Shown: positions 25,630-58,579 of the stretch, one piece after another | How the letters are laid out: the number at the start of each line of letters is the position of its first letter | How positions within the stretch are numbered: position 1 is the first letter of the stretch | Assembly: GCA_016217925.1 (NCBI GenBank) | Contig: JACRFK010000010.1 | Location: forward strand, 4,784-68,783 | DNA length: 64,000 bases | Source of the DNA: Candidatus Kaiserbacteria bacterium | GTDB taxonomy: Bacteria; Patescibacteriota; Minisyncoccia; Phycocordibacterales; UBA2100 | Reading direction: 5' to 3' | Notes under the pieces: generated by a model | What the model saw: the letters and a program-made list of their open reading frames with translations, nothing else | Database searches by the model: none | What the model was told of the DNA's origin: nothing | Program-made: the position numbers and the translations under genes

Positions 25630-26481
25630 ATGAGCAAACTCGTGGTCGTGACCGGTGGCGCGGGGTTTATAGGCTCGCATTTGTGCAACCGCCTGAAGGC
25701 GGAGAACTACACGGTTATCTCGCTCGACAATTACTTCACGGGTTCGCGCGACAACCATATTTCGGGCGTGGAGTACCGCGAGGGGCATACCAAGGACATC
25801 GAGAAGCACGTACCCGAGACGCCCGATATCATCTATCACCTGGGCGAGTACTCACGCGTCGAGAAAAGCATGGAAGAACCGGACCTCGTCTGGGACTTGA
25901 ATATCGCAGGTACGTTCGGTGTCGCCGAATACTGGCGCAAGCGCAAATGCAAGTTAGTGTATGCCGGTTCTTCCACAAAATTCGGTGACGGGGGTCTTTC
26001 CCGCGATGCGACCCCATACGCGTGGACGAAAGCATCGAATACCGAGCTCGTGAGCAATTATGGGGGTTGGTACAAGCTTCCGTACGCTATTACCTATTTC
26101 TACAATGTGTACGGGCCGCGTGAGCGGGCGGGTGCCTATGGCACCGTCGTCGAGATATTCCGTCAGCAGTACGCGAAAGGCGGGCCGCTCACCGTCGTCT
26201 CACCAGGGACGCAAAAACGCAATTTCACGCACGTTGACGATATCGTCGAAGGTCTGATGCTGGTCGGTGAGAAAGGAGGGGGCGACGACTTCGGGCTCGG
26301 CAACGAACGCGAGTACACCATTCTCGAAGTCGCCAATATGTTCTCGAATGAGATAACGATGCTGCCGGAGCGGGCGGGTAACCGACTCGCCTCGGGAATT
26401 GATACGACGAAATCAAAGTCGTTGGGGTGGAGCGCAAAGCACGGTCTCGAAGAGTACGTGAAGGAGATTACGGGAAAATAG
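25630..26481 (+). CDS. NAD-dependent epimerase/dehydratase (extended SDR) sugar-nucleotide enzyme
   Basis: 283 aa. VVTGGAGFIGSHL Rossmann motif, YAWTK (YxxxK). Confidence 0.8.
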   Translation: MSKLVVVTGGAGFIGSHLCNRLKAENYTVISLDNYFTGSRDNHISGVEYREGHTKDIEKHVPETPDIIYHLGEYSRVEKSMEEPDLVWDLNIAGTFGVAEYWRKRKCKLVYAGSSTKFGDGGLSRDATPYAWTKASNTELVSNYGGWYKLPYAITYFYNVYGPRERAGAYGTVVEIFRQQYAKGGPLTVVSPGTQKRNFTHVDDIVEGLMLVGEKGGGDDFGLGNEREYTILEVANMFSNEITMLPERAGNRLASGIDTTKSKSLGWSAKHGLEEYVKEITGK

Positions 26482-26482
26482 T

Positions 26483-27793
26483 ATGTCTGATAATCACATG
26501 TCCGCCGAAGGCGGATCCGCCTCCGGCGGAAAGCGCATTCTCATCTTTTCTCTCGCGTATTTTCCCAAGTATATCGGTGGAGCCGAGGTCGCTATTAAGG
26601 AGATAACCGACCGCAATCCCGATATCGAATTCCACATGGTGACGAACCGCTTTGATGCGGCGCTTCCGAAGGTCGAGAAGATAGGGAATGTGCTGATACA
26701 CCGCATTGGCATCGCGAGGCGAGGTGCTTCGATGTCGGACTTGCGGAAGTGGCCGCTTAACCTCAATAAACCACTTTTCCAATTTCTTGCTGCGTGGAAG
26801 GCGTTCTCGCTCCATCGCACGCATCACTACGATGCCATCTGGGCGATGATGGCGCATTCGAGCGGCATTCCTGCTATCATTTTCAAACTACTGCACCCGC
26901 GTGTTCCGTACATCCTTACGCTCCAAGAAGGTGATCGGCTCGAAAAAATAGAGCGGATGATGGTGCCACTCTGGCCCCTTTTTACGCGTGTTTTCAAGCG
27001 TGCCGATGTCGTTCAGACCATTTCCACATTCCTCGGACGCTGGGCGCACCGTCGCGGCTTTACGGGACGGCTTGAAGTTATCCCGAACGGGGTGGACGTC
27101 GCACACTTCTCGCGCAAAGAAATGCCTACGGTCATCGACGCCCTGAAAGATAGCCTTGGCAAAAGGATGGGAGATGTGTTCCTCATCACGACCTCCCGCC
27201 TCGTGCGCAAGAACGGCATCGACGTCGTCATCAAAGCGCTCCCGCTTCTTCCCGAGCATGTCCGGTTCATCGTACTCGGTGTGGGGCCCGATGACCTCAC
27301 GCTGAAGAGGCTCGCGCGTGAATGCAAAGTGCCTGAGCGTGTGAGATTCATGGGTGAAGTGGCGAATACGGATATCCCGAAATATTTGCACGCCTCCGAC
27401 ATATTCGTGAGACCATCGCGCTCCGAAGGCATGGGCAATTCATTCGTCGAAGCATTTGCAGCGGGATTACCCGTCATCGGCACACAGGAGGGGGGTATCG
27501 CGGATTTTCTTTTCGACCCCGAAAAGATTCGCGCAAGCGCGAATTCTCACGGGGCAGGCGAGGAGCGCACTCAAGAGTTTGGTGCGCCTTCTCCTGAATA
27601 TAAGACGGGGTGGGCAGTGGATACTGATTCGCCTGAACAAGTGGCGGAGGCGGTGAGAGACATCATGGAGCACCCTGAAAAAGTGCGCGCGGTCGTGGCG
27701 ACGGCGCATGCACTCGCGGTGGAAAAGTACGATTGGAACACGGTGGCGAAAGACATGCGCGAGAAAGTGTTTCTCCCGATCTTGAACAGGTAG
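26483..27793 (+). CDS. glycosyltransferase, GT4 family (GT-B)
   Basis: 436 aa. C-terminal EGMGNSFVEAFAAGLPVIGTQEGG (E-x7-E) motif. Confidence 0.8.
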   Translation: MSDNHMSAEGGSASGGKRILIFSLAYFPKYIGGAEVAIKEITDRNPDIEFHMVTNRFDAALPKVEKIGNVLIHRIGIARRGASMSDLRKWPLNLNKPLFQFLAAWKAFSLHRTHHYDAIWAMMAHSSGIPAIIFKLLHPRVPYILTLQEGDRLEKIERMMVPLWPLFTRVFKRADVVQTISTFLGRWAHRRGFTGRLEVIPNGVDVAHFSRKEMPTVIDALKDSLGKRMGDVFLITTSRLVRKNGIDVVIKALPLLPEHVRFIVLGVGPDDLTLKRLARECKVPERVRFMGEVANTDIPKYLHASDIFVRPSRSEGMGNSFVEAFAAGLPVIGTQEGGIADFLFDPEKIRASANSHGAGEERTQEFGAPSPEYKTGWAVDTDSPEQVAEAVRDIMEHPEKVRAVVATAHALAVEKYDWNTVAKDMREKVFLPILNR

Positions 27794-28170: not shown

Positions 28171-29223
28171 ATGCTTATGAAGAGAGTTGCTGTCGTCGGT
28201 GGAGGAATATTTGGCGCTACCGCCGCCATCTATGCTGCACGCGCGGGGCACGAGGTGCATTTGTTCGAAAAAGAATCGGATGTCCTGCAGGCCGCCTCCG
28301 GCATCAATCAGTACCGGCTCCACCGTGGGTACCACTACCCGCGCTCGTCAGATACGGCGCGTTCGGCGAAGGAGGCAGACGTCTCGTTCCGCGATGAGTA
28401 TCGCGAGGCTGTAATCGAGAACGGCCGGCACATCTATGCTATCGCCAAAGAGGGAAGCTTGGTTGCTCCGGAAGCATTTCTCGCGTTTTGCCGTGAGCAG
28501 GGACTAGAGGTCAAGGAAATCCCGGCCGAGCCGCATCTCGTTCCCAATTTGGTCGCTCTCGTCGTTGAAGGAGAGGAATCGTGGATGGATCCGGCAGCTC
28601 TGCGGCGTGTCGTTCTCAAGAAACTCAAAGAGTCAGGCGTTGAGCTCCACCTCAACACCCGCGCCACTCCGGAGATGCTCGAATCATTCGATACGGTAGT
28701 ACTCGCGACATACGCGCGGCTCAATGAGCTCGTGCCGCCGGAAGTTGATGTGACCCAGGAATACCAGTACGAGGTGTGTGAAAAGCCGGTCGTTCGTTTG
28801 TCCGGCTTGGAGAACATTGGCATCGTGGTCCTTGACGGACCGTTCATGTGCGCCGACCCGTGGGGGGACAGCGGGCTGCACGTGCTCGGCAACGTGGTAC
28901 ACGCGATACACGCGACCAACATCGGTCGAACCCCCATTATTCCCGAAAACCTTGCACCGCTCCTCGACCGCGGCCTCATCAAGAATCCGCCCATTACGAA
29001 GATACAAGACTTCATCGCAAGCGGCTCGCAGTACATACCCGCTCTTGGTACGGCAGAACACGTTGGCTCTCTTTTCACCATACGCACGGTCTTACCGCGG
29101 CTCGAAAAGACCGATGCGCGACCGACCATCGTGACCAAACTTTCCGACCGCTACATCAGAATATTCTCGGGGAAAATTGGGAATTGTGTGGAGGCGGCAA
29201 AAGAGGTCGTGGCACTTCTCTAG
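28171..29223 (+). CDS. FAD/NAD(P)-binding oxidoreductase
   Basis: 350 aa. N-terminal dinucleotide-binding VAVVGGGIFGATAAIYAA...VHLFE. Confidence 0.65.
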   Translation: MLMKRVAVVGGGIFGATAAIYAARAGHEVHLFEKESDVLQAASGINQYRLHRGYHYPRSSDTARSAKEADVSFRDEYREAVIENGRHIYAIAKEGSLVAPEAFLAFCREQGLEVKEIPAEPHLVPNLVALVVEGEESWMDPAALRRVVLKKLKESGVELHLNTRATPEMLESFDTVVLATYARLNELVPPEVDVTQEYQYEVCEKPVVRLSGLENIGIVVLDGPFMCADPWGDSGLHVLGNVVHAIHATNIGRTPIIPENLAPLLDRGLIKNPPITKIQDFIASGSQYIPALGTAEHVGSLFTIRTVLPRLEKTDARPTIVTKLSDRYIRIFSGKIGNCVEAAKEVVALL

Positions 29224-30110
29224 GCTCGCCCCGCCGTCGGCGGGGCGAGCATCTCATGGATTTTCAGCACGTGTGCGCCGAAATCTCCGGCCGTGCGCGG
29301 TATCGCTCCTCCGCCTGCGGCCCCGATAAACACTCGTACTTCTTGCGTGAGCGATGTCTCGGTGCTTTCAAAAATAACCTCTTCACCCTTGTATAATTTC
29401 GTGTCGTCCCACCGCAGCTTCGTGCCATCGATGAGTGTTGCCTCAATCGTATGGGCCTTCTCTTCCGAGAGCCTATCTATCTTCGAAATGAATTCGCACT
29501 GTTTGTAGGCGAACTTCGTCTCGATGCGATCGCATACGGTTTCTCCCGCCTCGCGCAAAGTGACCGATGCGGACTCCGGCATGCCATACAGGTCGTATGC
29601 AATTGAGAGGTGATGAGTGAGAAGAGCATTTTCGATGATGTCGAAGAACGTCCCATGCTTTTTCCACGTGCATTCTATGCGCGTAGCACCCTTTTCTTGT
29701 ATGAGGCGTTTGAGTTCCTGATAGACGGGGTGGTAGAGGAGCGTGTAGCCCGTCATAAGTATGCGGCCCTTTTCTTGCGCGAGCGCAGCGAGCGCGTATG
29801 CCTCCGCAGAGGTTTCTGTCAGCGGCTTTTCCACGAAGACGTGCTTTCCGGCTTCAAGAAAACGCCGGGCTATTTTTTCATGCGTTGCGACCGGGGTGGC
29901 GATGGCTACCGCGTCGACCACGGCATCGGCACTTATTTCCTCCACGCTCGCACGACGGGTTTGGGGCAGGGCTGTCGCAGCCCACGCGTCGTTCTTGTCG
30001 CTTTCTGAGGCAAAATACGCGAGCTCGCTTACATCTGCGAGTTCGCGGGCGACATTCTTACCCCATCTGCCGACCCCGATAATAGCGGTTTTCAGGCGCT
30101 TTTGTTCCAT
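29220..30110 (-). CDS. Gfo/Idh/MocA-family NAD(P)-dependent oxidoreductase (sugar dehydrogenase-like)
   Basis: 296 aa. AIIGVGRWGKN and EKPL motifs. Convergent with, and overlapping, the previous gene by 4 nt. Confidence 0.8.
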   Translation of the reverse strand: MEQKRLKTAIIGVGRWGKNVARELADVSELAYFASESDKNDAWAATALPQTRRASVEEISADAVVDAVAIATPVATHEKIARRFLEAGKHVFVEKPLTETSAEAYALAALAQEKGRILMTGYTLLYHPVYQELKRLIQEKGATRIECTWKKHGTFFDIIENALLTHHLSIAYDLYGMPESASVTLREAGETVCDRIETKFAYKQCEFISKIDRLSEEKAHTIEATLIDGTKLRWDDTKLYKGEEVIFESTETSLTQEVRVFIGAAGGGAIPRTAGDFGAHVLKIHEMLAPPTAGRA

Positions 30111-30135
30111 TGCACTCTACGGTAGCATAGAACCA

Positions 30136-31251
30136 ATGCGCGTGCTTCTTACCACGGGTATCTTTTTCCCCGACGTCGGGGGTCCCGCCACACACGTGCG
30201 CAAGATAGCTGAACATTTTGCGGGCCTCGGATGGCAGGTCACAGTGGTCGCTTTTGGCAATCACACAGGCAGTTCGCAAAAATACCGGGTGGTACGGGTG
30301 AGCCGGAAGTGGGGCAAGCTCGCCTCGTGGCTGCTCTACGCCTTGGCCATTGCGCGTGAATCGTTCAAGCACGATGTGCTCTATGCATTTGACCTCACGA
30401 CCGCCGGCATTCCAAGCGCACTCTTCGCAAAACTCCTCCGCAAGCCATTCATCCTCCGTATCGGCGGCGACCCTATCTGGGAGCGCATCGTGGAAAAAGG
30501 CGAGAGGTCCTTGCCGATGCGCGCATACTACGAGCAAGGGCTTTTCAAGAAAGATAAGCCGACACTGTATCGCATCATTCGCCGCGTGGTGCGCACTGCA
30601 GACACCGTTGTAACGTACTGCGACTTTCTCAAAGATATTTACGTGAGGCACTACGGCGTGAGCGAAAAAAGAGTCGTGCAGATCAAAAACCCATTCCCGA
30701 CAAAGACCTCCGCGACACTCGAAAAAGACACGTTCACATTCCTTTTTGCGGGGAGGTTCGTGTCGTATAAGAATCTGCCGCGCGTTCTCAAAGTGTTCAG
30801 GACCATTTCTGCAAAGCACGACAATGCCCGACTCGTCCTTATTGGCGACGGTCCCGATGAAGCGGCACTAAAAGCGAGGGCGGCTGCGCTTGGCAGCAAA
30901 GTGGAGATAATTCCGAAGGTAGATCAGAAGGCGCTCTTCGCCCGCATCAACGCGTCGTCCGTCGCGCTCGCTCCCGCGCTCACCGAATTCAATCCGAATT
31001 TCATTCTCGAAAGCTTGGCGCTTGGCAAACCTGCGCTCATCAGCCGCGACAACGGTCTCTCCGCACAGTTGCCCGACTACATGCAATTCGATCCGATGGA
31101 CGATGCATCACTCGAAACGGCGATGGAGCGCATGCTCGACGCAGGGAACTACCGTGAAGCCATTCGCGTCGTCGCCGGACTTCCGATGGACCAGACGTGG
31201 GGGAAAGTCGTCGCGGAACACGCAGTCATTGTGCAAGCAGCTGCCGGGTGA
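30136..31251 (+). CDS. glycosyltransferase, GT4 family
   Basis: Internal ATG (aa 126) of track ORF 29761, whose 5' part is antisense to the previous gene. MRVLLTTGIFFPDVGGPATHV... is a typical GT4 start. C-terminal E-x7-E region (FNPNFILESLALGKPALISRDNG). Confidence 0.8.
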   Translation: MRVLLTTGIFFPDVGGPATHVRKIAEHFAGLGWQVTVVAFGNHTGSSQKYRVVRVSRKWGKLASWLLYALAIARESFKHDVLYAFDLTTAGIPSALFAKLLRKPFILRIGGDPIWERIVEKGERSLPMRAYYEQGLFKKDKPTLYRIIRRVVRTADTVVTYCDFLKDIYVRHYGVSEKRVVQIKNPFPTKTSATLEKDTFTFLFAGRFVSYKNLPRVLKVFRTISAKHDNARLVLIGDGPDEAALKARAAALGSKVEIIPKVDQKALFARINASSVALAPALTEFNPNFILESLALGKPALISRDNGLSAQLPDYMQFDPMDDASLETAMERMLDAGNYREAIRVVAGLPMDQTWGKVVAEHAVIVQAAAG

Positions 31252-31295: not shown

Positions 31296-31419
31296 CGTCC
31301 CGTTAGAAGTCACGGAAGTTCTTCTAGTGGTAAGCAGGTGGTAGCTTTACATATGGTCGATATCTTAGGAACGATAATTTTTGAGTCGGAAGCGCAGGCT
31401 TCCTACTTCTAACGGGATG
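31296..31419 (+). promoter_or_regulatory. inverted-repeat leader element whose 3' arm overlaps the start codon (shared 13-mer TTCTAACGGGATG)
   Basis: GCGTCCCGTTAGAAGT (31296-31310) pairs with ACTTCTAACGGGATGCGC (31405-31422). The internal hairpin GGAAGC-gcag-GCTTCC is at ~31389-31404. The same 13-mer precedes the gene at 55522. Confidence 0.35.
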
Positions 31420-33357
31420 CGCGTACTGGTACTCTCCACCGATTGGAACGCTTTTAATGAATCGAGCGCTGTTACCAAGCGCCTGCAGATGCAGGCGCGC
31501 ACGGTGGAGCGCATGGACGTCCTGGTGCCCCACGGGCCCCTACAGCTCGTCCAGATATCAGGAAACGCCTCGGTGCGGGGATTTGGCTTGGGACGCGTTT
31601 TGGGCTCTCTGCGCACTATTGCGGCCGGATGGCGACTCCAACGGCCGGATGTCGTCTCTGCGCAAGACCCGTTCTTGACCGGCTTCGTCGCATGGATAAT
31701 CGCGTGGATGCGGGGAAGCAAACTCCACCTGCAAGTACATACCGACCTTTTCGACCCGTACTTCGGCGGCCTCTCGCTCGGCAATCGCCTGAAAGTGTTG
31801 CTTGCGCGATTTCTTCTCACACGGGCGGATTCCGTGCGTGTTGTTTCCAAACGCATCGCAGATTCACTTGCTGCACGCGGTATCAAAGCGCCCGTTACCG
31901 TACTGCCTGTATTTGTCGACCTTGAGAATCTCAAAAAAACGGAACCGCTCGATAAGCGTGAGCGGTACCCGAATTTCAAGAAAATCGTTCTTGTTGTCGC
32001 ACGGTTGGAAAAAGAAAAGAATGTCGCGGCATCTGTCCGTGCATTTGCAGAAATTGCAAAAGCGGATACGAGCGCGGGGCTCGTCGTCATCGGGAGCGGT
32101 TCACAGCGTGTGCCACTCGAAACGCTCGCGCGCGAGCTCGGTATCACGGACAAAGTGGTGTTTGAAGGCGCGCAAGACCCGTTCCCGTTTTACAAATCCG
32201 CAGACCTCGTCCTCGTTACGTCGGAATACGAAGGATTCGGCATGGTCATCGTAGAAGCGCTTGCGGCCGGGTGTCCGGTCGTTTCCTACGATATAGGTCT
32301 TGCGCGTGAGGCGGGCGCTGTTATTGCGAAGGTCGGAGATTTGCCTCGTGTCGCCACCGCCGTTTTATCCGAAAGGAAGCGTGGCAAACTCACGCTCAGT
32401 TTTCCCAATGAAGCCGAATACCGCGAACTGTGGTTCGCCGATATCTCTCTTTCGGTCTCAGGCGTCGAAGCTCGCGCGGGAGAGAAGAAAAGCACCGGTG
32501 AGCAACCCACCGTGGGCTATGTGGGGCAGGGATTCATCGGCAAGAATTATGCCGATGAGCTCGAAAGCCGCGGCTTTAAAGTAGTCCGGTATTCGCTCGA
32601 AGAGCCGTATCGCAACAATAAAGACAAAATAAAAGATTGCGATATCGTTTTTATCGCGGTACCGACGCCGACTACACCCGACGGGTTTAGCGACACCATC
32701 GTGCGGCAGACGGTCGGGCTCGTGGGCGAGGGCAAAGTCGCGGTCATTAAATCCACCATGCTCCCCGGCATGACTGAAAAGATACAAAAAGAATTCCCGA
32801 AACAGGTCGTGATGCACTCACCCGAATTCTTGCGCGAGGCGACCGCCGCATACGACGCCGCGCATCCGGACCGCAACATCGTGGGTATTTGTACGGATAC
32901 ACCCGAAGTACGCGCGCTCGGGCAAAAGGTCATTTCTATTCTTCCGCCTGCACCATTTGAGCTCGTGTGCTCCTCAGTGGAGGCGGAATTCATCAAGTAT
33001 GCGGGCAATAACTGGCTCTATATCAAGGTCGTGTACGTCAACATCCTCTACGATCTTGTGCAGAAGCTCGGCGGCAATTACGAGCACGTGCGCGACGCCT
33101 TCGCGGCCGACCCTAGAATGGGCCGCTCGCACCTTGACCCGATACACGCGAGCGGACATGGCGGACCTCCCGGCCGCGGTGCAGGCGGGCATTGCTTCAT
33201 CAAAGATTTCGCTGCGTTCCGCTCGATGTATGAACAAGTGTTTCCGGAAGATAAAGCGGGCATTGAGGCACTGAAGGGAATGGAGGAGAAAAATGTGAAG
33301 CTTCTGCGTGATGCGCACAAAGACCTCGATTTGCTCGATGGCGTCTATGGGAAGTAA
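31417..33357 (+). CDS. fusion protein: GT4 glycosyltransferase (N) + truncated UDP-glucose/GDP-mannose 6-dehydrogenase-like domain (C)
   Basis: N-terminal GT-B carries the E-x7-E motif (YEGFGMVIVEALAAGCPVVS). The C-terminal ~290 aa has the nucleotide-sugar-dehydrogenase Rossmann GYVGQGFIGKNYA, VPTPTTPDG (cf. VGTPT) and catalytic-Cys motif GGHCFIKD (cf. GGSCFPKD). It lacks the C-terminal UDP-binding domain. Confidence 0.7.
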   Translation: MRVLVLSTDWNAFNESSAVTKRLQMQARTVERMDVLVPHGPLQLVQISGNASVRGFGLGRVLGSLRTIAAGWRLQRPDVVSAQDPFLTGFVAWIIAWMRGSKLHLQVHTDLFDPYFGGLSLGNRLKVLLARFLLTRADSVRVVSKRIADSLAARGIKAPVTVLPVFVDLENLKKTEPLDKRERYPNFKKIVLVVARLEKEKNVAASVRAFAEIAKADTSAGLVVIGSGSQRVPLETLARELGITDKVVFEGAQDPFPFYKSADLVLVTSEYEGFGMVIVEALAAGCPVVSYDIGLAREAGAVIAKVGDLPRVATAVLSERKRGKLTLSFPNEAEYRELWFADISLSVSGVEARAGEKKSTGEQPTVGYVGQGFIGKNYADELESRGFKVVRYSLEEPYRNNKDKIKDCDIVFIAVPTPTTPDGFSDTIVRQTVGLVGEGKVAVIKSTMLPGMTEKIQKEFPKQVVMHSPEFLREATAAYDAAHPDRNIVGICTDTPEVRALGQKVISILPPAPFELVCSSVEAEFIKYAGNNWLYIKVVYVNILYDLVQKLGGNYEHVRDAFAADPRMGRSHLDPIHASGHGGPPGRGAGGHCFIKDFAAFRSMYEQVFPEDKAGIEALKGMEEKNVKLLRDAHKDLDLLDGVYGK

Positions 33358-49418: not shown

Positions 49419-49804
49419 AGGGCGATTTTATCATCCACGAAGGGTCCATCCTTGAAGGCGTACATGAGGGCGTCTTCGATGACCCGTACCTCATGACCGC
49501 CCCGTATGATGAGCAGGCATTGGCCCTCCGTAACGCGTTTATTCTCAATTAGTTCTCCTTTCTCGTCAAAAATACTTGCCTCAATCGCACCCTTGATCAC
49601 GACGATGGCCTCCTGGGGTTGTTGGGTGGTCTTAGTGATTTTTTTGTGGGTATGTTTTGCGACCACATGGCCACTCTTCCGTTTCATGAGGAGTAATTGG
49701 ATTGACCACGCAGGATCAGTGGCAGGAAACGTGCCCTCTTGGATTGATTCAAGATCCAGGACGACCGCAAACACTTCTCCTCCCGATTTGATTTCAGTTC
49801 TCAT
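49415..49804 (-). CDS. FdtA/WxcM-like cupin, second copy
   Basis: 129 aa. HVVAKHTHKKITKT (the HxHKK signature shared with 47792). Confidence 0.5.
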   Translation of the reverse strand: MRTEIKSGGEVFAVVLDLESIQEGTFPATDPAWSIQLLLMKRKSGHVVAKHTHKKITKTTQQPQEAIVVIKGAIEASIFDEKGELIENKRVTEGQCLLIIRGGHEVRVIEDALMYAFKDGPFVDDKIAL

Positions 49805-50774: not shown

Positions 50775-50894
50775 AGACGAGTTTGAGTCATCATACACGT
50801 TTTGACATCTTTTTCATCTGATCTTTGAAAGAATCTCCAAGAAGAAAGCAATACTAGCAGACTGCTATTCTTCGGACAAGCTATCGATGTTATC

Positions 50895-51593: not shown

Positions 51594-51629
51594 TACGGTA
51601 TTGCCGCTCGCTCAGCATAGTGAAGAAAC

Positions 51630-52616: not shown

Positions 52617-52625
52617 ATTTTTTGC

Positions 52626-53561
52626 TCACGCGCTGTTAAAAGAATTTTTGAACCATACGTACGTGCTCGCTAGTCCTTGCTCGAGCGGAATCGTGTGTTT
52701 CCAACCGAGTGCGTGGATCTTGCTTACATCTAGCTTCTTTTGGGGCGTACCGTCGGGCTTAGTTTTGTCCCAGACTATTTTCCCATTGTAGCCGACGGTG
52801 GCGGCAATGAGTTCAGCAAGCTCCCTGATGGTCACATCTTCTCCCGTACCGATGTTGATGATAGAAGGATCATCGTATGTTTCCATGAGGAAGACGCAAG
52901 CGCTTCCAAGGTCGTCAACGTGCAAAAATTCGCGTTTGGGGGCGCCGGTGCCCCAGACCGTGACCGTCGGGGCGTCGGACATTTTTGCCTCGTGGAAACG
53001 TCGTATCAGCGCGGGAAGGACATGCGAACGCTCGGGGGAGAAATTGTCGTTGGGACCATATAGATTCGTCGGCATGACGGAAATGAAATTGCAGCCGTAT
53101 TGACGGTGGTACGCCTGGCACATTTCAATTCCCGCGATTTTGGCCATGGCATACGCGCTGTTCGTTTCTTCGAGAGGACCGGTCATGAGGTACTCCTCCT
53201 TGATAGGCTGGGGTGCGAGTTTGGGGTAAATGCATGAACTCCCGAGGAAGAGCAATTTCTTGACCCCGCTTTTGTATGCCTCGTGCAAGACATTGGTCTG
53301 CACGATGAGGTTCTCGCGGATGAAATCTGCCGGATAGGTATTGTTGGCCATGATGCCTCCCACGCGTGCGGCGGCGAGGAAGACGTATTCGGGCCTTTCA
53401 GTTTCAAAAAATGCCCGAACAGCGATTGGATCCAACAGGTCGAGCTCGTCATGTGTTCGTACAATAATATTGGTGTATCTTTTCCGTTCGAGCTCTCGTA
53501 CGATAGATGAGCCGACGAGGCCTCGGTGTCCGGCGACATATATTTTGGAGTTCTTTTCCAT
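52626..53561 (-). CDS. fcl: GDP-L-fucose synthase (GDP-4-keto-6-deoxy-D-mannose 3,5-epimerase/4-reductase)
   Basis: 311 aa. [15 protein letters not shown] is a typical Fcl/WcaG start. YAMAK (YxxxK). Confidence 0.85.
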
Positions 53562-53564
53562 TCT

Positions 53565-54041
53565 TTATTTCAACGCTTTTAAGGCTCCTTCAATCCGTGC
53601 CTTCACGTTGGGGTGTAGAGTCGGATCGCTCACAGAGAACCAGCGTATTTCGCTGTGTTGGCTATCCGGCTTCATCGATTCGTCCGCAATAGTGCATACA
53701 AAGTATACATCGACAGCGTGGTAGTTTACTCCCTCAAAGATGGAGGAATCGTTTATTTCGTTGAGGACACCGGCAAACGTAAGCGCTGTCGGGGGAATAG
53801 AGAGTGCGAGCTCTTGCTTGGCGATGCGACAAGCGGCCTCCAAGAAGTTTTCATTCTTGAAGAAGCGGCCGCCGAAACTGTAAAATTCTCCCGCATAGGG
53901 TTCATTGGTCCGCTTGCCAAGAAGTACCTTCGACTTGTCGGGATTCAGGAATAGTACGTCAACGGTGACGAGCGGCATGTTTTCCATCGCGGCGCGGTAG
54001 AGCTCTAATGGCACCATTCCTCCTATAGGTTGTTTCATCAT
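53565..54041 (-). CDS. NUDIX hydrolase, GDP-mannose mannosyl hydrolase (Gmm/WcaH)-like
   Basis: 158 aa. NUDIX fold (GKRTNEPYAGEFYSFGGRF...E..AACRIAKQELAL). Position gmd-...-fcl-gmm as in colanic-acid-type loci. Confidence 0.65.
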   Translation of the reverse strand: MMKQPIGGMVPLELYRAAMENMPLVTVDVLFLNPDKSKVLLGKRTNEPYAGEFYSFGGRFFKNENFLEAACRIAKQELALSIPPTALTFAGVLNEINDSSIFEGVNYHAVDVYFVCTIADESMKPDSQHSEIRWFSVSDPTLHPNVKARIEGALKALK

Positions 54042-54322
54042 CCCGTTAGAGATAGGAAGCCTTTCAAGCGATTCTTGATGTAGCGCTTACCCATCCCAAA
54101 TTTAAGAAATAATTCTCTCGACCGTGCGTCATCTTCGTTCCTGCACATTTCGTAGTATATCAACTCTAGCGGACGACGTCCTTTTGTCGAACGACTAAGA
54201 CCGTCGCTGTGTTGCTTGAAACGCTTCCGTAGGTCGTTCGTGAACCCCGTATACGTTTCCCCGTCTTTGAGGCTTCGGAGAATGTAAGTATAGAAACTTT
54301 CTTTATCTCTAACGGGAATCAT
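54038..54322 (-). CDS. GIY-YIG nuclease domain protein (stand-alone, 94 aa)
   Basis: [29 protein letters not shown] is the GIY-YIG motif. Wedged, with overlapping stops and starts, between the gmm-like gene and the high-GC gmd. Confidence 0.7.
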
Positions 54323-55368
54323 GCTTCTTTGTTGTCCAACTCGGCGAGATCAGCTTCTATCATAATCCGGATAAGTTCTTTGAATTTGACTTTTGGTTTC
54401 CATCCGAGCTTTCGCTTTGCCTTGGACGCATCTCCTTGAAGAATATCCACTTCGGCAGGGCGGTAGTAGTGCGGATCTATTTCAACGAGAGTTTTCCCCG
54501 AAAGGCGGTCGATGCCTTTTTCCTGCCGGCCTTTTCCTTTCCAGATAACGTCGAATCCCAGTTGGCGCCCGGCCTCTTCGACGAGCTCGCGGACGGAATG
54601 CGTCTCGCCCGTCGCGAGGATGTAATCGTCGGGCTCTTTTTGCTGGAGCATGCGCCACATACCCTCCACGTAATCTTTGGCGTAGCCCCAGTCGCGCTTC
54701 GCGTCGAGGTTGCCCAGATATATCTTTTCTTGCAGGCCACGGCTGATGCGGGAGAGCCCGGCAGTAACTTTGCGCGTGACGAACGTCTCGCCACGGCGGG
54801 GGCTCTCATGATTGAACAATATTCCGTTGCATGCGAAGAGTCCGTAGCTCTCGCGGTAATTCTTGGCTATCCAAAATCCGAACACTTTTGCGCAGCCGTA
54901 CGGCGAGCGGGGATGGAAGGGCGTCGTTTCCTTTTGGGGTATCTCGTTGACCTTTCCGAACATTTCCGAGGAAGATGCCTGGTAGAAGCGCGTTTTGATG
55001 CCCGTCTCGCGGATGGCGTCGAGCATACGGAGTGTGCCTATCGCGTCTACATCGGCGGTGTATTCGGGGATGTCGAAGCTCACGCGCACATGGCTCTGCG
55101 CGCCGAGGTGGTATATCTCGTCGGGCCTCACTTTTTCCAGAATGCGATTGATGCTGCTCGTGTCGGAAAGATCGCCGTAGTGGAGGAGGAGGCGGACGTT
55201 GCGTTCGTGCGGGTCGCGTAGGATATGTTCGAGTCGTCCCGTGTTGAAACTGCTGGAGCGGCGGATGATGCCGTGTACCTCGTAGCCCTTCTCGAGGAGC
55301 AGCTCGGCGAGATAGGAGCCGTCTTGGCCGGTGATGCCCGTAATGAGGGCTTTTTTCGCTTTTGCCAT
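54319..55368 (-). CDS. gmd: GDP-mannose 4,6-dehydratase (high-GC copy)
   Basis: 349 aa. [36 protein letters not shown]. Confidence 0.9.
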
Positions 55369-55454
55369 CGGTGCATGGTAGCCTCGCTGGGCTCATTTCG
55401 CAAGGAAATCCGGTTGCATGCAGTAGACGAGGAGTGCATACTTCGGCGCATGAG

Positions 55455-55524
55455 TCCCGTTAGAAATAGCCCGCCCCGTTGGCCCTTCGGGCGCGCAAGC
55501 GCGGGCGCGATTTCTAACGGGATG
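55455..55524 (+). promoter_or_regulatory. compound hairpin leader whose 3' arm overlaps the start codon (shared 13-mer TTCTAACGGGATG)
   Basis: TCCCGTTAGAAAT (55455-55467) pairs with ATTTCTAACGGGA (55510-55522). They enclose a GC-rich sub-structure that includes GCCC-ttcg-GGGC. The ATG at 55522 is inside the stem. Confidence 0.35.
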
Positions 55525-56331
55525 AAGAAAACGAAGAAACCGGTTGTATGGGTGGCGGTTTCCGGCGGCTTCGACCCCCTACACATCGGGCACGTGCGCA
55601 TGTTCCGCGAGGCGCGGCAGCTTGGCGACAAACTCGTCGTCATTATGAACAACGACAACTGGTTGCGAGGGAAGAAAGGTTTCGTATTCATGCCGCAGAA
55701 GGAGCGCGCCGAGATAATCAGGCACCTGCCATTTGTCGACAAGGTCGTCCTTACCGACCACCAGAAAGGTGATGCGGACAAAAGCGTCTCGCGTACGCTC
55801 ACCAAAGTCCGCCCGGACATCTTCGCCAACGGCGGTGATAGATTTTCAAAAAACGTCCCCGAAGTCGCCGTGTGTAAAAAGCTCGGCATCAAAATGGTTT
55901 TCAATGTGGGGCAAGGCGGCAAGGTGCAGTCTTCATCGTGGATGATAAGCAATTCGCGCCGGCCCGCATCGAAATCCGTCCGGCCGTGGGGAGAATATTA
56001 CGGATGGGATGAGGGGAGTGAGTGGAATCTCAAGACTATTTACATCAAACCGAAAAGCCGATTGAGCCTGCAATACCATCATCATCGCGAAGAGTGGTGG
56101 CTGCTTGTGGAAGGTGATGCGACCGCGACTGTGCACGAAGGCAAGGAGGTACTCACGATACCGCTCCGCAAAGGGGAAGTGTTCCGCGTCGGTAAAAAGC
56201 AGATACACCGGCTCTCGTCCAAAAAAGGCGGAGTCGTCGTCGAAGTGGCGTACGGGAAATTTAGCGAGGAAGACATCGTGCGGCTAGAAGACGACCACGG
56301 CCGCCCAACTTTAAAACGGCGCGGGCGGTGA
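55522..56331 (+). CDS. fusion protein: RfaE-domain-II-like cytidylyl/adenylyltransferase (HxGH nucleotidyltransferase) + type-II phosphomannose-isomerase-like cupin
   Basis: Internal ATG (aa 100 of track ORF 55225). N-terminal VVWVAVSGGFDPLHIGHVRMFREARQLGDKLVVIMNNDNWLRGKKG matches HldE/RfaE II. The C-terminus (SLQYHHHREEWWLLVEGDATATVHEG...EEDIVRLEDDHGR) matches the ManC/PMI C-terminal cupin. Confidence 0.7.
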   Translation: MKKTKKPVVWVAVSGGFDPLHIGHVRMFREARQLGDKLVVIMNNDNWLRGKKGFVFMPQKERAEIIRHLPFVDKVVLTDHQKGDADKSVSRTLTKVRPDIFANGGDRFSKNVPEVAVCKKLGIKMVFNVGQGGKVQSSSWMISNSRRPASKSVRPWGEYYGWDEGSEWNLKTIYIKPKSRLSLQYHHHREEWWLLVEGDATATVHEGKEVLTIPLRKGEVFRVGKKQIHRLSSKKGGVVVEVAYGKFSEEDIVRLEDDHGRPTLKRRGR

Positions 56332-56344
56332 TATACTCTTTCCA

Positions 56345-58579
56345 ATGATACTCGAAAAAACAATCCGTTTTATCGTTCTCAGCGCGTTATTCCTCCTTCT
56401 TCTCATTCCATTCCTCGTCCCGCAATCGTTGTTCTTCCCGTTCATCACGGGTAAGAACTTCGCGTTCCGCATACTCATCGAAATAATGGCTGGCGGGTGG
56501 CTTGCGCTCGCTCTCACGTATCCAAAATACCGCCCGCGCCGTTCATGGATACTTGCCGCGTTCTCTGTATTCGTTGTCATCATCGCACTTGCCGATGCGC
56601 TCGGCGCGTACCCATTCAAAAGCTTTTGGAGCAACTATGAGCGCATGGACGGTTGGGTGACGCTCGCACACCTCTTCGTGCTGGTCGTCGTCGCATCTTC
56701 CATGTTGAACACCGAGAAACTCTGGGGCACTTTTTGGAAGTCGGCGCTCGGAGTGTCCGTCGCCGTCGCGGGATATGGTTTTCTCCAACTTTTTGGCGTG
56801 GCGAGCCTCACCGCAGGTTTTTCGTCGCTCTCTCGGCTCGACGCGACGTTCGGCAATCCCATTTACCTCGCCGCGTACATGCTCTTCCACGTGTTCATCG
56901 CGGCGCTCCTCTGGGCCCAAGCGTGGACGAAGAGCGCTCCGGGTTCTAGGCTCGGATTTTCTATCGCCTACGGAACCGTGCTTGTCATCGATTGTATCGT
57001 ACTGCTTTTGACGTCGACACGGGGGACCATTCTCGGACTCGTCGGAGGGGTTTTTATTTCGGCGGTACTCGTCGCACTTTTCGCACGCGATGCCAAAAAT
57101 AGTCTCGTTCGTCCGGCTGTCGGCGTCGTTATAGGCCTCGTTGTGCTATCGGGAGGGTTCTTCTTGGTGCGCGACGCCGCATGGGTACAGAATGTCAGTT
57201 TCTTGCAGCGGCTCGGGACCATTTCCGCATCGGATAGCACGACGAAAGCTCGTTTCTACAATTGGGGTATGGCGTGGGAAGGGGTAAAGGAACGCCCCGT
57301 CTTGGGCTGGGGGCAGGAAAATTATGCGGTCGTGTTCGACAAATACTACGACCCGAGGATGTATAACGCCGAGCAATGGTTCGATCGCGTGCACAATGTT
57401 GTCTTCGACTGGCTCGTCGCGGGCGGCATTCTCGGACTCCTCGGCTATCTCAGTATTTTCGCAGCTGCACTTGCGGCATTGTGGCACCGTTCGCGCGGTG
57501 CACAGAATCTATCCGAGTTCACGGTCGTCGAGAGCAGTATCCTCTCGGGAGTCCTCTCGGGATACTTTTTCCACAATCTCTTTGTGTTCGACAACGTCAC
57601 GAGCTACATGCTTTTCGGTCTCATCATTGCCTATATAGTATGGCGCAAGAGTGAATCGGCAGGGTCTCTGAGGCTATGGGCTCAGTCGCTACCGGTGACC
57701 AGCTTGCCCTACGTCGCGATAGCTGCCGCCTTGCTCACGTGGGGTGGAGCATATTGGATCAATGCGGCGGCGCTTGAGCAGAATCGTCTCCTTATTCAGG
57801 CTATTAGTCCGCAAGCGGAAGGGGTCGGCAAGAACCTCGAACTCATCAAGAGCGCCATCGCAGAGGGTTCTGTGGGTACGCAAGAAGCCCGCGAGCAACT
57901 TTTGCAAATGACGACGAAGATTATTTCCGCCTCTGGAATCGATCCGAGCATCAAGCAGCAATTCTACGACGTCGCTGTCGCGGAAATGAAGAAGCAGCAG
58001 GAAGCATCCCCTCTGGATGCGCGTCCCGCGCTCTTCTTGGGGCTGCTCCACAATGCCGCTGGTAATTATGTCGCGGGCGCCGAAGCACTTCTACATGCAC
58101 ACGAGCTTTCACCGGCGAAACAATCCATCTTGTATGAGATGGCGCAAAATGCGCAGATGCGCGGAGATGTCGCGGGCATGATGCGGAACCTGAAAACCGC
58201 TTACGAGTTGTACACCGATAATCCGCAGGCCCGCATTCTCTATGCCGCGGCGTTGATCCGTACAGGAAATAATGCTCTCGCCGATGAATTGCTTGCCACT
58301 ATTATCCCCACAGGCGAGGCGGCTGATCCACGTATCACCAGCGCATACCTGGAACACAAACGCTACGACAAAATAGCGCCTATCTGGAGTGCGTACGTGG
58401 CGGTGCACCCAGATAATGTGCAGGGGTACTTCACGCTCGCGGCTGCATACTACGGAATGGGAGAACGCACGAAGGCAATCGAGGTTCTCGTTGCAGCATC
58501 GAAGCTCTCTCCGGCGGTCGCGGCGCAGGCGGCGCCATTCATCGAGCAGATAAAGAACGGCACCCTCAAGCTCGAATAA
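56345..58579 (+). CDS. O-antigen ligase (WaaL/Wzy_C)-family polytopic membrane protein with C-terminal TPR repeats
   Basis: 744 aa. About 12 TM in the N-terminal ~430 aa with a large extracytoplasmic loop. The C-terminal ~300 aa is helical and TPR-like (AYELYTDNPQARILYAAALIRTGNNALA...). Confidence 0.75.
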   Translation: MILEKTIRFIVLSALFLLLLIPFLVPQSLFFPFITGKNFAFRILIEIMAGGWLALALTYPKYRPRRSWILAAFSVFVVIIALADALGAYPFKSFWSNYERMDGWVTLAHLFVLVVVASSMLNTEKLWGTFWKSALGVSVAVAGYGFLQLFGVASLTAGFSSLSRLDATFGNPIYLAAYMLFHVFIAALLWAQAWTKSAPGSRLGFSIAYGTVLVIDCIVLLLTSTRGTILGLVGGVFISAVLVALFARDAKNSLVRPAVGVVIGLVVLSGGFFLVRDAAWVQNVSFLQRLGTISASDSTTKARFYNWGMAWEGVKERPVLGWGQENYAVVFDKYYDPRMYNAEQWFDRVHNVVFDWLVAGGILGLLGYLSIFAAALAALWHRSRGAQNLSEFTVVESSILSGVLSGYFFHNLFVFDNVTSYMLFGLIIAYIVWRKSESAGSLRLWAQSLPVTSLPYVAIAAALLTWGGAYWINAAALEQNRLLIQAISPQAEGVGKNLELIKSAIAEGSVGTQEAREQLLQMTTKIISASGIDPSIKQQFYDVAVAEMKKQQEASPLDARPALFLGLLHNAAGNYVAGAEALLHAHELSPAKQSILYEMAQNAQMRGDVAGMMRNLKTAYELYTDNPQARILYAAALIRTGNNALADELLATIIPTGEAADPRITSAYLEHKRYDKIAPIWSAYVAVHPDNVQGYFTLAAAYYGMGERTKAIEVLVAASKLSPAVAAQAAPFIEQIKNGTLKLE

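Follow-up and report, generated by a model that had tools for sequence, protein, structure and literature searches.

The window, that is, the whole 64-kb stretch of DNA that was analysed, contains between positions 25630 and 58579 an array of 30 ORFs that is 95% coding. The gaps between genes total 1,471 of 32,950 bp, which agrees with its earlier description as nearly gap-free. Gene functions were assigned by Pfam and NCBIfam profile searches; genes lie on the plus strand unless marked (-), and the comparison loci (L numbers) are described below. The functional left edge of the island is a gene for a 283-aa SDR-family protein resembling NDP-sugar epimerases/dehydratases (25630-26481; Pfam Epimerase, 150 bits), for which NCBIfam gave only sub-threshold matches. 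It is followed by a GT4 glycosyltransferase (26483-27793; Glycos_transf_1, 110 bits, and Glyco_transf_4), by a FAD-dependent DAO-family oxidoreductase (28171-29223; DAO, 74 bits), a homologue of which is also held by the L004 island, and by a GFO/IDH/MocA NAD-oxidoreductase (29220-30110 (-); GFO_IDH_MocA, 79 bits) that is sugar 3-dehydrogenase-like, its UDP-GlcNAc 3-dehydrogenase-like score of 64 bits being below the cut-off. The next GT4 gene (30136-31251) is one of two whose starts were placed too early in the mechanical ORF list. It was listed from 29761 and its real start is at about M126, the first 125 residues being of low complexity and overlapping the minus-strand gene, and Pfam matches start only from residue 138 of this long ORF onwards. 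The gene at 31381-33357 codes for a GT4 domain (residues 40-328) fused to a truncated UDP-glucose/GDP-mannose dehydrogenase-like module made up of UDPG_MGDP_dh_N (profile positions 71-177) and the central domain (residues 414-619); in L003 the two modules are separate genes. A further GT4 glycosyltransferase (33308-34399; Glyco_trans_1_4, Glycos_transf_1) precedes a 919-aa fusion (34396-37155) of a cytoplasmic GT4 (residues 37-337) and a membrane GT-C enzyme (PMT_2, residues 429-566), with about 10 hydrophobic helices beyond residue 369. Then come a SAM methyltransferase fused to a Dpm1/AglJ-like GT2, which resembles polyprenyl-phosphate hexose synthases (37159-38574; Methyltransf_23 and Glycos_transf_2; AglJ-like score of 100 bits, below the NCBIfam cut-off), a class I SAM methyltransferase (38571-39239; Methyltransf_23/31/12/25/11), a small GtrA-family membrane protein (39214-39699 (-); GtrA_DPMS_TM, 85.6 bits, full-length) and a GDP-fucose-synthase-like SDR NDP-sugar epimerase/reductase (39789-40766; Epimerase, 183 bits; NF047922, 176 bits against a cut-off of 500). 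A second Dpm1-like GT2, also resembling polyprenyl-phosphate hexose synthases (40739-41428; Glycos_transf_2), scored 98 bits for AglJ and 80 bits for dolichyl-phosphate hexose transferase, each below the NCBIfam cut-off, and is followed by an NDP-hexose C-methyltransferase type protein with a Zn-binding N-domain and a C-MT C-domain (41433-42695; Methyltransf_13, Methyltransf_23 and Methyltransf_14, the last with 144 bits).

Next on the right are a marginal Methyltransf_24-like protein (42701-43459 (-); 26.7 bits against a cut-off of 26.3) and a Wzx-type (MOP/Polysacc_synt) flippase with at least nine hydrophobic helices (43456-44727 (-); Polysacc_synt, 54.6 bits), whose orthologue in L011 is 90% identical. 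The next gene (44797-45963) had been taken for a Wzy-like membrane protein. This was rejected because the protein matches PMT_2 (31.6 bits against a cut-off of 26.1), is named "glycosyltransferase family 39 protein" at NCBI, and has homologues (n=86) nearly all of which match PMT_2, several of them being GT2 fusions; it is a GT39/PMT_2 GT-C glycosyltransferase. Beside it is a soluble 366-aa protein without a TM helix, probably a divergent GT-B glycosyltransferase (45965-47065; weak Glyco_trans_1_2 match, E 0.0035), with an orthologue in L011 at 90% identity. A DUF218 protein (47197-47745; Pfam DUF218) gave no tblastn match in 84 loci and is missing from the otherwise collinear L011 island, as is a 138-aa C-terminal fragment of a second Wzx-type flippase (47792-48208 (-); Polysacc_synt_C only), likely a gene remnant. 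The second C-methyltransferase (48213-49418 (-); Methyltransf_13 and Methyltransf_14) is 92% identical to its L011 orthologue. It is followed by a weakly assigned WbuC-like cupin (49415-49804 (-); TIGR04366, 32 bits against a cut-off of 42), copy 2 of GDP-mannose 4,6-dehydratase (49794-50798 (-); TIGR01472, 420.8 bits), a short SDR-like protein of 232 aa (50895-51593; partial Epimerase match, 34.8 bits) that had no match in 84 loci, L011 included, and a GT2 glycosyltransferase (51630-52616 (-); Glycos_transf_2, 51.8 bits) that is missing from L011. GDP-L-fucose synthase (Fcl; 52626-53561 (-)) scored 497.4 bits with NF047922 against a cut-off of 500, the adjacent NUDIX hydrolase, which is GDP-mannose mannosyl hydrolase-like (Gmm-like; 53565-54041 (-); Pfam NUDIX), scored 67 bits with NF011963 against a cut-off of 146, and copy 1 of GDP-mannose 4,6-dehydratase (54319-55368 (-)) scored 576.8 bits, both Gmd copies thus exceeding the TIGR01472 cut-off of 415. 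The second misplaced start belongs to a fusion of a cytidylyltransferase-like nucleotidyltransferase and a mannose-6-P-isomerase-type cupin (55522-56331; CTP_transf_like and MannoseP_isomer), listed from 55225 but truly starting near M100 of that ORF. The last gene of the island (56345-58579) codes for a 744-aa WaaL-fold (Wzy_C) glycan ligase or oligosaccharyltransferase. A terminator-like hairpin with a T-run (58669-58692, plus strand), found by pattern scan only, lies 90 bp past its stop codon and parts it from secA (59309-61822; SecA domains), which is outside the glycan pathway itself; gatB (62130-63575; GatB_N, GatB_Yqey) follows.

These assignments confirm a 33-kb island of genes for a surface glycan with methylated deoxy-sugars. 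The inventory in the earlier note holds in most respects. At least ten glycosyltransferase domains had been claimed, and Pfam gives 10 firm ones and a weak one: five GT4 (26483, about 30136, 31381, 33308 and the N-terminus of 34396), three GT2 (the C-terminus of 37159, 40739 and 51630), two GT-C/PMT_2 (the C-terminus of 34396, and 44797) and the weak GT-B at 45965. The two oxidoreductases, the three SDRs (25630, 39789 and Fcl at 52626, with the short ORF at 50895 besides), the two gmd copies with fcl and a gmm-like gene, GtrA, Wzx and the Dpm1-like GT2, of which there are two (37159, fused, and 40739), were likewise recovered. The count of two C-methyltransferases (41433 and 48213) was correct, but the total of four methyltransferases was not, since there are five domains (the others being at the N-terminus of 37159, 38571 and 42701). 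The export and ligation set had also been called complete, whereas no Wzy lies in the locus and profile searches found no initiating phosphoglycosyltransferase in the 64-kb window, nor did Pfam find a Wzz/PCP co-polymerase there. Two Gmd, Fcl, the C-methyltransferases and the O-methyltransferases make a glycan with GDP-6-deoxyhexose and methylation a reasonable inference, as had been predicted; the predicted repeat unit fared less well because the locus has neither a Wzy nor an initiating transferase and so does not point to a polymer of repeat units.

The 744-aa protein is 100% identical to the NCBI entry [quoted passage not shown]. Its Wzy_C match (residues 212-369) scored 71 bits against a cut-off of 31.7, compared with 50 bits for E. 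coli WaaL itself, and the presence of TPRs was also borne out. The AF2 model is confident (pLDDT 86.6) and has a WaaL-like fold, with WaaL as the best structural match. The putative catalytic residues are R226, R303 and H350, which are invariant across 42 orthologues; the Arg and His of ligases, the loss of which would have spoken against such an enzyme, are thus both present. R226 and H350 share Wzy_C profile positions with R215 and H338 of E. coli WaaL, and hhalign pairs "LTSTRGT" with "LTQTRAT", though with a low probability (0.4%). As in E. coli WaaL, H350 lies within the motif H-N-x9-G-x2-G, which was found in 104 of 120 homologues, the remaining 16 having H-D at the second position. Searches of the PDB with phmmer and hmmsearch returned nothing matching the membrane domain, and the sequence tie to the solved WaaL runs only via the Pfam profile and the fold.

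The AF2 model shows 13 TM helices, and the TPRs span about residues 494-738. The basic loops alternate as they should in an N-in protein, and conservation is 0.84-1.00 in the predicted external loops as against 0.34-0.51 in the cytoplasmic loops. The large loop and the TPR domain, behind the 13th TM helix, are therefore predicted to be outside the cell. TPRs typically bind proteins. The TPR region here is as well conserved as the TM core (52-58% identity), which points to a conserved partner, and all 80 orthologues retrieved in full length keep the ~250-aa array; among the top 150 cluster representatives a length of 700-800 aa predominates. In architecture the protein resembles PglS, which has 13 TM helices and a periplasmic C-terminal domain, and WsfB, a Gram-positive Wzy_C protein with C-terminal TPRs whose role as an S-layer O-oligosaccharyltransferase is, according to a review, itself only predicted. 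In contrast, WaaL (~400-420 aa) and TacL (397 aa) have neither a 13th TM helix nor an external domain. In other systems TPR arrays also serve as scaffolds for polysaccharide export, which tells against the reading as an O-oligosaccharyltransferase.

At least 495 species-level Patescibacteria genomes carry an orthologue of the ligase (38-84% identity), and the loci from 80 of these were retrieved. They are titled Patescibacteria, Parcubacteria or Kaiserbacteria, the exceptions being MAGs without a lineage title or probably mislabelled. Synteny showed a conserved ligase-secA-gatB side and variable upstream glycan genes. Of the 52 loci that extend at least 6 kb past the ligase, 51 have secA there in the same orientation as the ligase and 46 have gatB; the adjacency of secA may reflect no more than conserved gene order. 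In 16 of 75 loci the ligase is immediately preceded by a relative of the 55522-56331 gene with more than 50% identity (88-91% in L004, L007, L008 and L011). The upstream content varies between Wzx (L003) and an ABC exporter (L002), and between GT4-rich and CMP-sugar or NTP-transferase sets. Since these upstream genes change from genome to genome while the ligase is conserved, the island is hypervariable in its glycan genes, with the ligase as its anchor. A WcaJ-type initiating transferase adjoins the ligase in L071 and L084, which supports a polyprenyl-PP-linked donor.

The earlier view of the host as a small-genome, non-LPS lineage is supported by the Kaiserbacteria identity of the protein, by its Patescibacteria relatives and by the literature, in which the CPR are treated as within a monoderm clade. 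The ligase probably attaches glycan to surface proteins or lipids and not to LPS. We tentatively propose, at a little short of even confidence, a surface-glycan ("serotype-like") island at a fixed chromosomal site, bordered on the right by the ligase gene followed by secA and gatB, in which the WaaL-fold enzyme would be a WsfB/PglL-like protein O-oligosaccharyltransferase; judged on this analysis, that role appears the most likely one. GDP-mannose would be converted to GDP-L-fucose and other, partly C-methylated 6-deoxyhexoses by the two Gmd, Fcl, the SDRs and the two C-methyltransferases. At the cytoplasmic face, and after initiation by a transferase presumably encoded elsewhere, the GT4 and GT2 enzymes would build on polyprenyl diphosphate as carrier an oligosaccharide that the O-methyltransferases may cap or decorate and Wzx would flip to the outer face. 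There the GT-C (PMT_2) enzymes may attach side sugars, with polyprenyl-phosphate-hexoses as donors that the Dpm1-like GT2s would supply, GtrA assisting. The 744-aa enzyme would then hand the lipid-carried glycan en bloc to an acceptor hydroxyl, using R226, R303 and H350 on the external face. Because LPS is lacking, the 13-TM/external-domain architecture is that of O-oligosaccharyltransferases and the external TPR array is conserved, the likeliest acceptors would be Ser/Thr(/Tyr) residues in surface proteins that are secreted or anchored in the membrane. No pilin and no recognised S-layer gene was found in the window. At 8723-10723 and 24088-25617 it encodes surface proteins in which long Ser/Thr/Pro/Ala linkers are combined with C-terminal anchors, and these are candidate acceptors. 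The earlier preference for an O-oligosaccharyltransferase over an LPS ligase is thus upheld by the architecture but not by the PglL_A and Wzy_C_2 signatures of proteobacterial O-oligosaccharyltransferases, which are absent from the protein even at E <= 1.

The same data, the absence of these signatures among them, would fit a serious though less probable rival, namely, that the ligase is TacL-like and transfers a polyprenyl-PP-linked glycan to a membrane glycolipid or other glycan-bearing envelope molecule. The product would then be a lipoglycan or LTA-like surface polymer, and the TPRs would dock other envelope machinery and not acceptor proteins. There is a monoderm precedent, since TacL of S. 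pneumoniae, also a Wzy_C protein, joins an Und-PP-linked chain to a glycolipid (PMC5727136). The canonical reaction of WaaL, the best structural match, also takes a lipid-anchored sugar acceptor, and the near-invariant external loops would suit a conserved small-molecule acceptor. However, the 13th TM helix and external domain that TacL and WaaL lack, together with the retention in all 80 complete orthologues and the core-like conservation of a typically protein-binding array, argue against it, and no gene in the island is singled out as a glycolipid-anchor synthase.

We consider it improbable that the Wzy_C protein is a Wzy-type polymerase acting on the lipid carrier, with wall attachment by an enzyme encoded elsewhere, such as an LCP protein. 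PF04932 also covers some polymerases and, with 44797-45963 being a GT-C enzyme, the island has no other candidate. However, Wzy proteins change along with the repeat unit and diverge strongly from one glycan type to another, whereas this ligase is a positional orthologue beside islands of differing content and export route; it also has the WaaL-type Arg/His and motif, and Pfam shows no Wzz/PCP partner for it in the window. Finally, the reading of the locus as a common diderm gene cluster for LPS O-antigen or capsule, with a classical WaaL, is largely refuted and most improbable because, although Gmd, Fcl, GT4, Wzx and Wzy_C are families typical of O-antigen clusters, the protein and its relatives belong to a lineage treated as monoderm, the 64-kb window holds CPR-like housekeeping flanks and no lpx, waa or lpt genes, and 13 TM helices with an external TPR domain are unlike WaaL.

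The gene that closes the glycan island, at window 56345-58579 (+), encodes a 744-aa protein that is 100% identical to an NCBI entry named 'O-antigen ligase family protein [Candidatus Kaiserbacteria bacterium]' and is referred to here as the ligase. It matches Wzy_C (PF04932) with 71.2 bits against a cut-off of 31.7, residues 212-369 covering profile positions 2-149, and is predicted to have the WaaL-like multi-TM fold with a large extracytoplasmic loop between TM9 and TM10. A PDB sequence search with the ligase gave no WaaL match, its identity to WaaL being 14%, and when the N-domain profile was aligned to E. coli WaaL with hhalign, the only match was short and of low probability, though exact at the motif level. 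In the 419-aa WaaL of E. coli K-12, R215 lies in LTQTRAT, R288 lies in SLGARLAMYE, and H338 heads the motif H-N-x9-G-x2-G. We take the general form of this motif to be H[NSQ]x9Gxx[GTY] and R215, R288 and H338 to be the residues of functional weight. In the ligase, R226 (LTSTRGT) is paired with R215 by hhalign, both at about position 16 of the Pfam profile; R303 (TTKARFYNWG), at the start of the loop helix 298-316, is equated with R288 by local motif and helix position only; and H350 (DRVH350-N-VVFDWLVAG-G-IL-G) falls, like H338, at about profile position 130. None of the three varies in a 42-sequence alignment, and the His motif is found in 104 of 120 homologues, the other 16 differing solely by H-D instead of H-N. 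Thus, the catalytic Arg and His that a WaaL-like assignment, as made in the earlier note, calls for are retained. The Wzy_C profile and the His motif are shared with WaaL of E. coli K-12 and of C. metallidurans (7TPG/7TPJ), but the ligase has an extra TM helix and an external TPR domain. Arg residues with a catalytic His are the general scheme described for PglS and WaaL (PMC12800693).

The topology of the ligase is predicted to be N-in with the large loop outside, and basic residues cluster in loops 58-68 (RPRR), 192-202, 247-254, 381-393 and 440-450. Because a 13th TM helix (451-487) precedes it, the TPR array (494-738) would also be outside. Mean column conservation is 0.84-1.00 in the predicted external loops, which include the invariant 'KSFWSNYERMDGW' and 'VFDN', and 0.34-0.51 in the predicted cytoplasmic loops, and this difference agrees with a TPR array that faces outward. 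With 52-58% identity to distant orthologues, the TPR domain equals the TM core in conservation, and a conserved external array of this kind suggests a conserved protein partner.

The surroundings of the gene were compared by look-ups for the related loci L002-L005, whose orthologues are 54-59% identical, and by tblastn of all window proteins against 84 loci. Of the 52 loci in which 6 kb or more of sequence follows the ligase, 51 have SecA downstream of it on the same strand, with a median gap of 1,053 bp, and 46 have GatB downstream. A terminator-like hairpin follows the ligase gene at 58669-58692, so co-transcription with secA is unlikely. The largest interruption seen is in the Kaiserbacteria genome of L002 (12317-18409), where genes for a 966-aa LCAT/DUF7379 lipase-like protein, a small ORF and IMP dehydrogenase lie between ligase and SecA in a gap of 6,281 bp. 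The genes upstream of the ligase are for glycan biosynthesis and their content differs among genomes. In L003 a hexapeptide acyltransferase and Wzx accompany five GT4s, and in L002 an MsbA/PglK-like ABC exporter is found with NTP-transferases, WavE and a CMP-sugar synthetase-like gene; L004 has SDRs, DAO, a SIS-domain protein and a methyltransferase together with the Gmd/Fcl/CTP-MPI block of the window. In 42 of 58 informative loci, one or more of the window's glycan genes have a homologue upstream. In L011, whose ligase is 81% identical to that of the window, the right-hand module is collinear at 73-92% identity in the order Wzx, GT-C, GT-B-like, C-MT, WbuC, Gmd2, Fcl, NUDIX, Gmd1, CTP-MPI, ligase; it lacks the DUF218 gene and Wzx remnant (47197-48208) and the short SDR and GT2 (50895-52616). 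Between 42 and 54 kb the G+C content of the window is 0.47-0.49, down from about 0.55. The low G+C and the two segments that are extra relative to L011 indicate recent gene gain or loss in the 42000-54000 module, which was probably acquired horizontally. Scans for tRNA and Rfam families found nothing inside the island, and there was no sign of an integrative element. The locus thus behaves like O-antigen, capsule and slg loci: its genes form a mosaic with fast turnover, its site is fixed, and a conserved transferase caps it.

The mechanical ORF list and the Pfam/NCBIfam scans of the window confirm the dense array at 25630-58579, which holds 30 ORFs and only 1,471 bp of intergenic DNA in 32,950 bp. 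Two starts in the list were too early, the real ones being at about 30136 and 55522, and the over-extended stretches (29761-30135 and 55225-55521) overlap opposite-strand genes. The at least ten glycosyltransferase domains counted in the earlier note are there: five GT4 (26483-27793, ~30136-31251, 31381-33357, 33308-34399 and the N-terminal third of 34396-37155), three GT2 (the C-terminal half of 37159-38574, 40739-41428 and 51630-52616) and two GT-C of the PMT_2 type (the C-terminal part of 34396-37155, and 44797-45963), plus a weak GT-B candidate at 45965-47065. Its count of four SAM methyltransferases has to be raised to five domains, at the N-terminus of the product of 37159, at 38571-39239 and 42701-43459, and in the C-methyltransferase-type proteins with Methyltransf_13/14 domains at 41433-42695 and 48213-49418, these last being the two C-MT enzymes that it had listed. 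Also present, as it had listed them, are two oxidoreductases (one DAO-type, one GFO/IDH/MocA-type), two GDP-mannose 4,6-dehydratases (577 and 421 bits, the TIGR01472 cut-off being 415), a GDP-L-fucose synthase (497 bits, cut-off 500) and a Gmm-like NUDIX protein. SDRs are at 25630, 39789 and 50895, and there is a WbuC-like cupin. The membrane proteins are GtrA, a Wzx-type flippase and a 138-aa remnant of a second flippase.

Several of these proteins are fusions. The 31381-33357 (+) product is an in-frame fusion of GT4 with a truncated UDP-glucose/GDP-mannose dehydrogenase-like module that has N-domain profile positions 71-177 and the central domain and is without the C-terminal domain. In L003 (3949-5983) each part has its own gene, the two being neighbours that code for 361 aa and 301 aa, and the short UGDH-like protein may represent a separate family, so far uncharacterised. 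Unusual as well are the 919-aa product of 34396-37155 (+), in which a cytoplasmic GT4 is fused to a PMT_2 GT-C domain of about 10 TM helices, and that of 37159-38574 (+), a SAM methyltransferase fused to a Dpm1/AglJ-like GT2. The gene at 55522-56331 (+) codes for a cytidylyltransferase-like/PMI-cupin fusion whose nucleotidyltransferase part is like RfaE domain II and whose cupin is of the PMI type. In 16 of 75 loci it immediately precedes the ligase gene. It is better conserved than the ligase (in L004, 90% against 59% identity) and may replace the usual ManC-type NTP_transferase in making activated mannose or heptose.

The complete Wzx/Wzy-like/WaaL-like set that had been ascribed to the island was found only in part. 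Wzx and the ligase are present, but the supposed Wzy-like protein (44797-45963) matches PMT_2 above the Pfam threshold and is named a family-39 glycosyltransferase by NCBI. Nearly all of its 86 homologues are PMT_2 proteins, several with an N-terminal GT2 fusion (P0169, P0178, P0180, P0185 and P0201). On this family evidence the Wzy reading was rejected, and the protein is by its sequence a GT-C enzyme with a putative polyprenyl-phosphate-sugar donor and not a polymerase. Pfam matched none of the scanned window ORFs to a Wzz/PCP, LCP or initiating phosphoglycosyltransferase family, no Bac_transf or WecA-type gene was found in the window by Pfam, and E. coli WecA and WcaJ gave no tblastn match in the window. 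As no initiating transferase was found in the window, initiation would be encoded elsewhere; two of the loci, L071 and L084, have a WcaJ-type initiating transferase upstream of their ligase. In the absence of Wzy and Wzz, a long repeat-unit polymer, the product first predicted, is not indicated, and a large oligosaccharide is the more likely glycan. Judged from family matches, the set in the island is Wzx, the ligase and a GtrA/Dpm1-like/GT-C side-branch system. The three components of the latter, a GtrA-like protein (85.6 bits), GT2s resembling polyprenyl-phosphate-sugar synthases and GT-C enzymes, are encoded together, the similarity of the GT2s to AglJ and Dol-P-hexose transferase being below the equivalog cut-offs. 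With GtrA, two Dpm1-like GT2s and two PMT_2 GT-Cs the island resembles GtrA/GtrB/GtrC and also ArnC/ArnT and Dpm1/PMT; unlike in GtrA/GtrB/GtrC, one of the GT-Cs carries a fused cytoplasmic GT4, and one of the GT2s a fused methyltransferase. The island PMT_2 enzymes could also glycosylate proteins directly.

The host probably belongs to a lineage without LPS. Its taxonomy is Kaiserbacteria/Patescibacteria, no lpx or waa genes are in the 64-kb window, and the flanks of the island are housekeeping genes (MurC/MurD-like ligases, glutamate racemase, SecA and GatB). The CPR have been placed within a monoderm clade (10.1101/2021.05.31.446380). The earlier note's view of the organism as probably LPS-less is thereby supported, and taxonomy and architecture led us to reject a classical diderm O-antigen cluster. 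Relatives of the ligase were found by a genome scan in at least 495 species-representative genomes, and the 80 loci retrieved are labelled, with some exceptions, Kaiserbacteria, Parcubacteria, Paceibacterota or Patescibacteria. Among the exceptions, L007, L012, L016, L022 and many more are TPA MAGs labelled 'uncultured Candidatus Saccharibacteria bacterium' whose ligase-SecA-GatB loci are of the Kaiserbacteria or Parcubacteria type, the identity to the window protein reaching 84%, and they are probably mislabelled. When the membrane domain of the ligase alone was used as phmmer query against 1.84 billion cluster representatives, 7,179 proteins were found at E <= 1e-3 and 2,334 clusters (50% identity) at E <= 1e-30. 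Most of the best 150 matches (E <= 1e-100) are 700-800 aa long and so carry the C-terminal extension. The family is thus very large, and it is auto-annotated 'O-antigen ligase family protein'.

What the ligase glycosylates can be approached from its architecture and its neighbours. Our preferred reading, held tentatively and at slightly under an even chance, is that it is an O-oligosaccharyltransferase (O-OTase) with a protein acceptor. By analogy, the predicted architecture of 13 TM helices and an external domain, common to PglS and PglL, counts for this, as does the combination of Wzy_C and TPR in WsfB of Paenibacillus alvei. WsfB and the WsaB/WsaA proteins of Geobacillus stearothermophilus are predicted S-layer O-OTases of Gram-positive slg clusters. 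Compared by architecture, the ligase is like WsfB in its monoderm host and in having Wzy_C with C-terminal TPR, whereas in G. stearothermophilus the TPR protein, WsaA, is separate. Beside the ligase, as in slg clusters, are deoxyhexose synthesis genes, multidomain glycosyltransferases and O-methyltransferase domains. The slg clusters differ in having their own initiating transferase (WsfP/WsaP) and a Wzm/Wzt ABC exporter, where the island has Wzx and no initiating transferase, and unlike in slg systems no S-layer gene was identified in the window. With PglL, PilO (TfpO) and PglS the ligase shares the Wzy_C core, 13 predicted TM helices, an extracytoplasmic C-terminal domain and a putative catalytic His and Arg at the external face, and their relaxed glycan specificity would fit a conserved enzyme beside variable glycan genes. 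Unlike them it has a TPR array of about 250 aa as C-terminal domain, a monoderm host and no adjacent pilin, and neither PglL_A (PF15864) nor Wzy_C_2 (PF11846) gave a Pfam match in the ligase even at E <= 1. Pilin motifs were sought near the ligase, both in the window and in the 84 loci, with a negative result except for one distant site, and a TfpO-like pilin-specific role was set aside on this result. The products of 8723-10723 (-; HYR/DUF4430/prenyltransferase-like), 10757-11326 (-; DUF4430) and 24088-25617 (+; PKD) are predicted surface proteins with long low-complexity linkers rich in Ser/Thr/Pro/Ala and are plausible O-glycosylation substrates; those of 8723-10723 and 24088-25617, which also have hydrophobic C-terminal anchors, count for a protein acceptor.

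A serious though less probable rival is that the ligase acts instead on a non-protein acceptor in the manner of TacL. The Wzy_C enzyme TacL of the monoderm Streptococcus pneumoniae attaches an Und-PP-linked, flippase-exported chain to a non-LPS acceptor, a glycolipid (PMC5727136), and the missing PglL_A and Wzy_C_2 signatures would be at home in such an enzyme; TacL has 397 aa and no TPR or external domain, however, and this compact plan of about 400 aa is not that of a 744-aa protein with a TPR array. Ligases and OTases are known for glycan promiscuity. A conserved enzyme beside variable glycan genes and export routes fits a promiscuous ligase or OTase and not a Wzy polymerase, which we hold to be improbable: Wzy_C does not of itself separate the two, but the positional orthologues are 38-84% identical beside islands of differing content, which is not the high divergence between glycan types, in step with the repeat unit, expected of a Wzy, and no Wzz/PCP chain-length regulator is among the scanned window ORFs. 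A classical LPS ligase is scarcely credible, since lipid A-core would not be available as acceptor in a lineage that probably lacks LPS and the protein is not a WaaL of about 400 aa and 12 TM helices.

In the mechanism that we consider most likely, the GT4 and GT2 enzymes would assemble GDP-mannose-derived 6-deoxyhexoses, namely L-fucose and probably also C-methylated and other reduced forms, and other sugars on polyprenyl-diphosphate, the initiating transferase being presumably encoded elsewhere. The glycan would be O-methylated and flipped by Wzx to the outer face, where the GT-C enzymes would decorate it with polyprenyl-phosphate-hexoses made by the Dpm1-like GT2s with the assistance of GtrA, and the WaaL-fold enzyme would transfer it en bloc. 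A broader proposal, which we regard as speculative and rather doubtful, is that the Wzy_C-TPR enzyme is the general O-OTase of the whole CPR class Paceibacteria/Parcubacteria, acting on proteins as they leave the Sec translocon, its gene being beside secA in 51 of 52 informative genomes, with the island as a 'serotype' locus. If so, the upstream island would diversify the glycan coat of ultra-small, likely host-attached cells, which could drive host recognition and phage or immune evasion, and there would be lineage-wide, glycan-promiscuous protein glycosylation in bacteria that have no LPS and synthesise few lipids of their own.

The island is of an ordinary type (O-antigen-, slg- or capsule-like) with genes already auto-annotated, and a glycan island with a WaaL-superfamily transferase is of a known kind, as are TPR-fused O-OTase candidates in monoderms. 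In the literature searched, no relevant paper connects CPR/Patescibacteria with O-antigen ligase, S-layer or glycosylation. Three points seem to be new: the ligase-secA anchor conserved across the lineage, the hypervariable Patescibacteria island, and the argument from structure and topology that the TPR-ligase faces outward. The Patescibacteria/CPR account for much of bacterial diversity and are mostly uncultured, and to our knowledge almost nothing is known of their cell surface, which is where they meet their hosts. A large uncharacterised WaaL-fold subfamily with a predicted external TPR domain gives a testable handle on this surface, being at a fixed site beside secA and capping a glycan island whose content shifts even among close relatives. 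A glycan-promiscuous O-OTase would mean a general protein glycosylation system for a whole bacterial class and possibly a new tool for bioconjugate engineering, while a lipoglycan ligase would point to an LTA-like polymer in organisms thought to scavenge lipids.

Some observations concern the rest of the window. A VirD4/TraG-like type IV coupling protein, with weak TrwB, T4SS-DNA_transf and TraG-D_C matches, is encoded at 22320-24224 (+) immediately upstream of the PKD surface protein gene, with slight overlap, and adjoins a gene for a DUF4015 putative glycoside hydrolase (21040-22296). The 335-aa ORF at 15878-16885 has an odd composition and no family match and may not be a gene. At 7458-8754 a gene for a RibD_C/DHFR-like reductase and a divergently oriented gene of the F420-0:gamma-glutamyl ligase family (CofE-like) are found, the latter unexpected in a metabolically reduced CPR genome.
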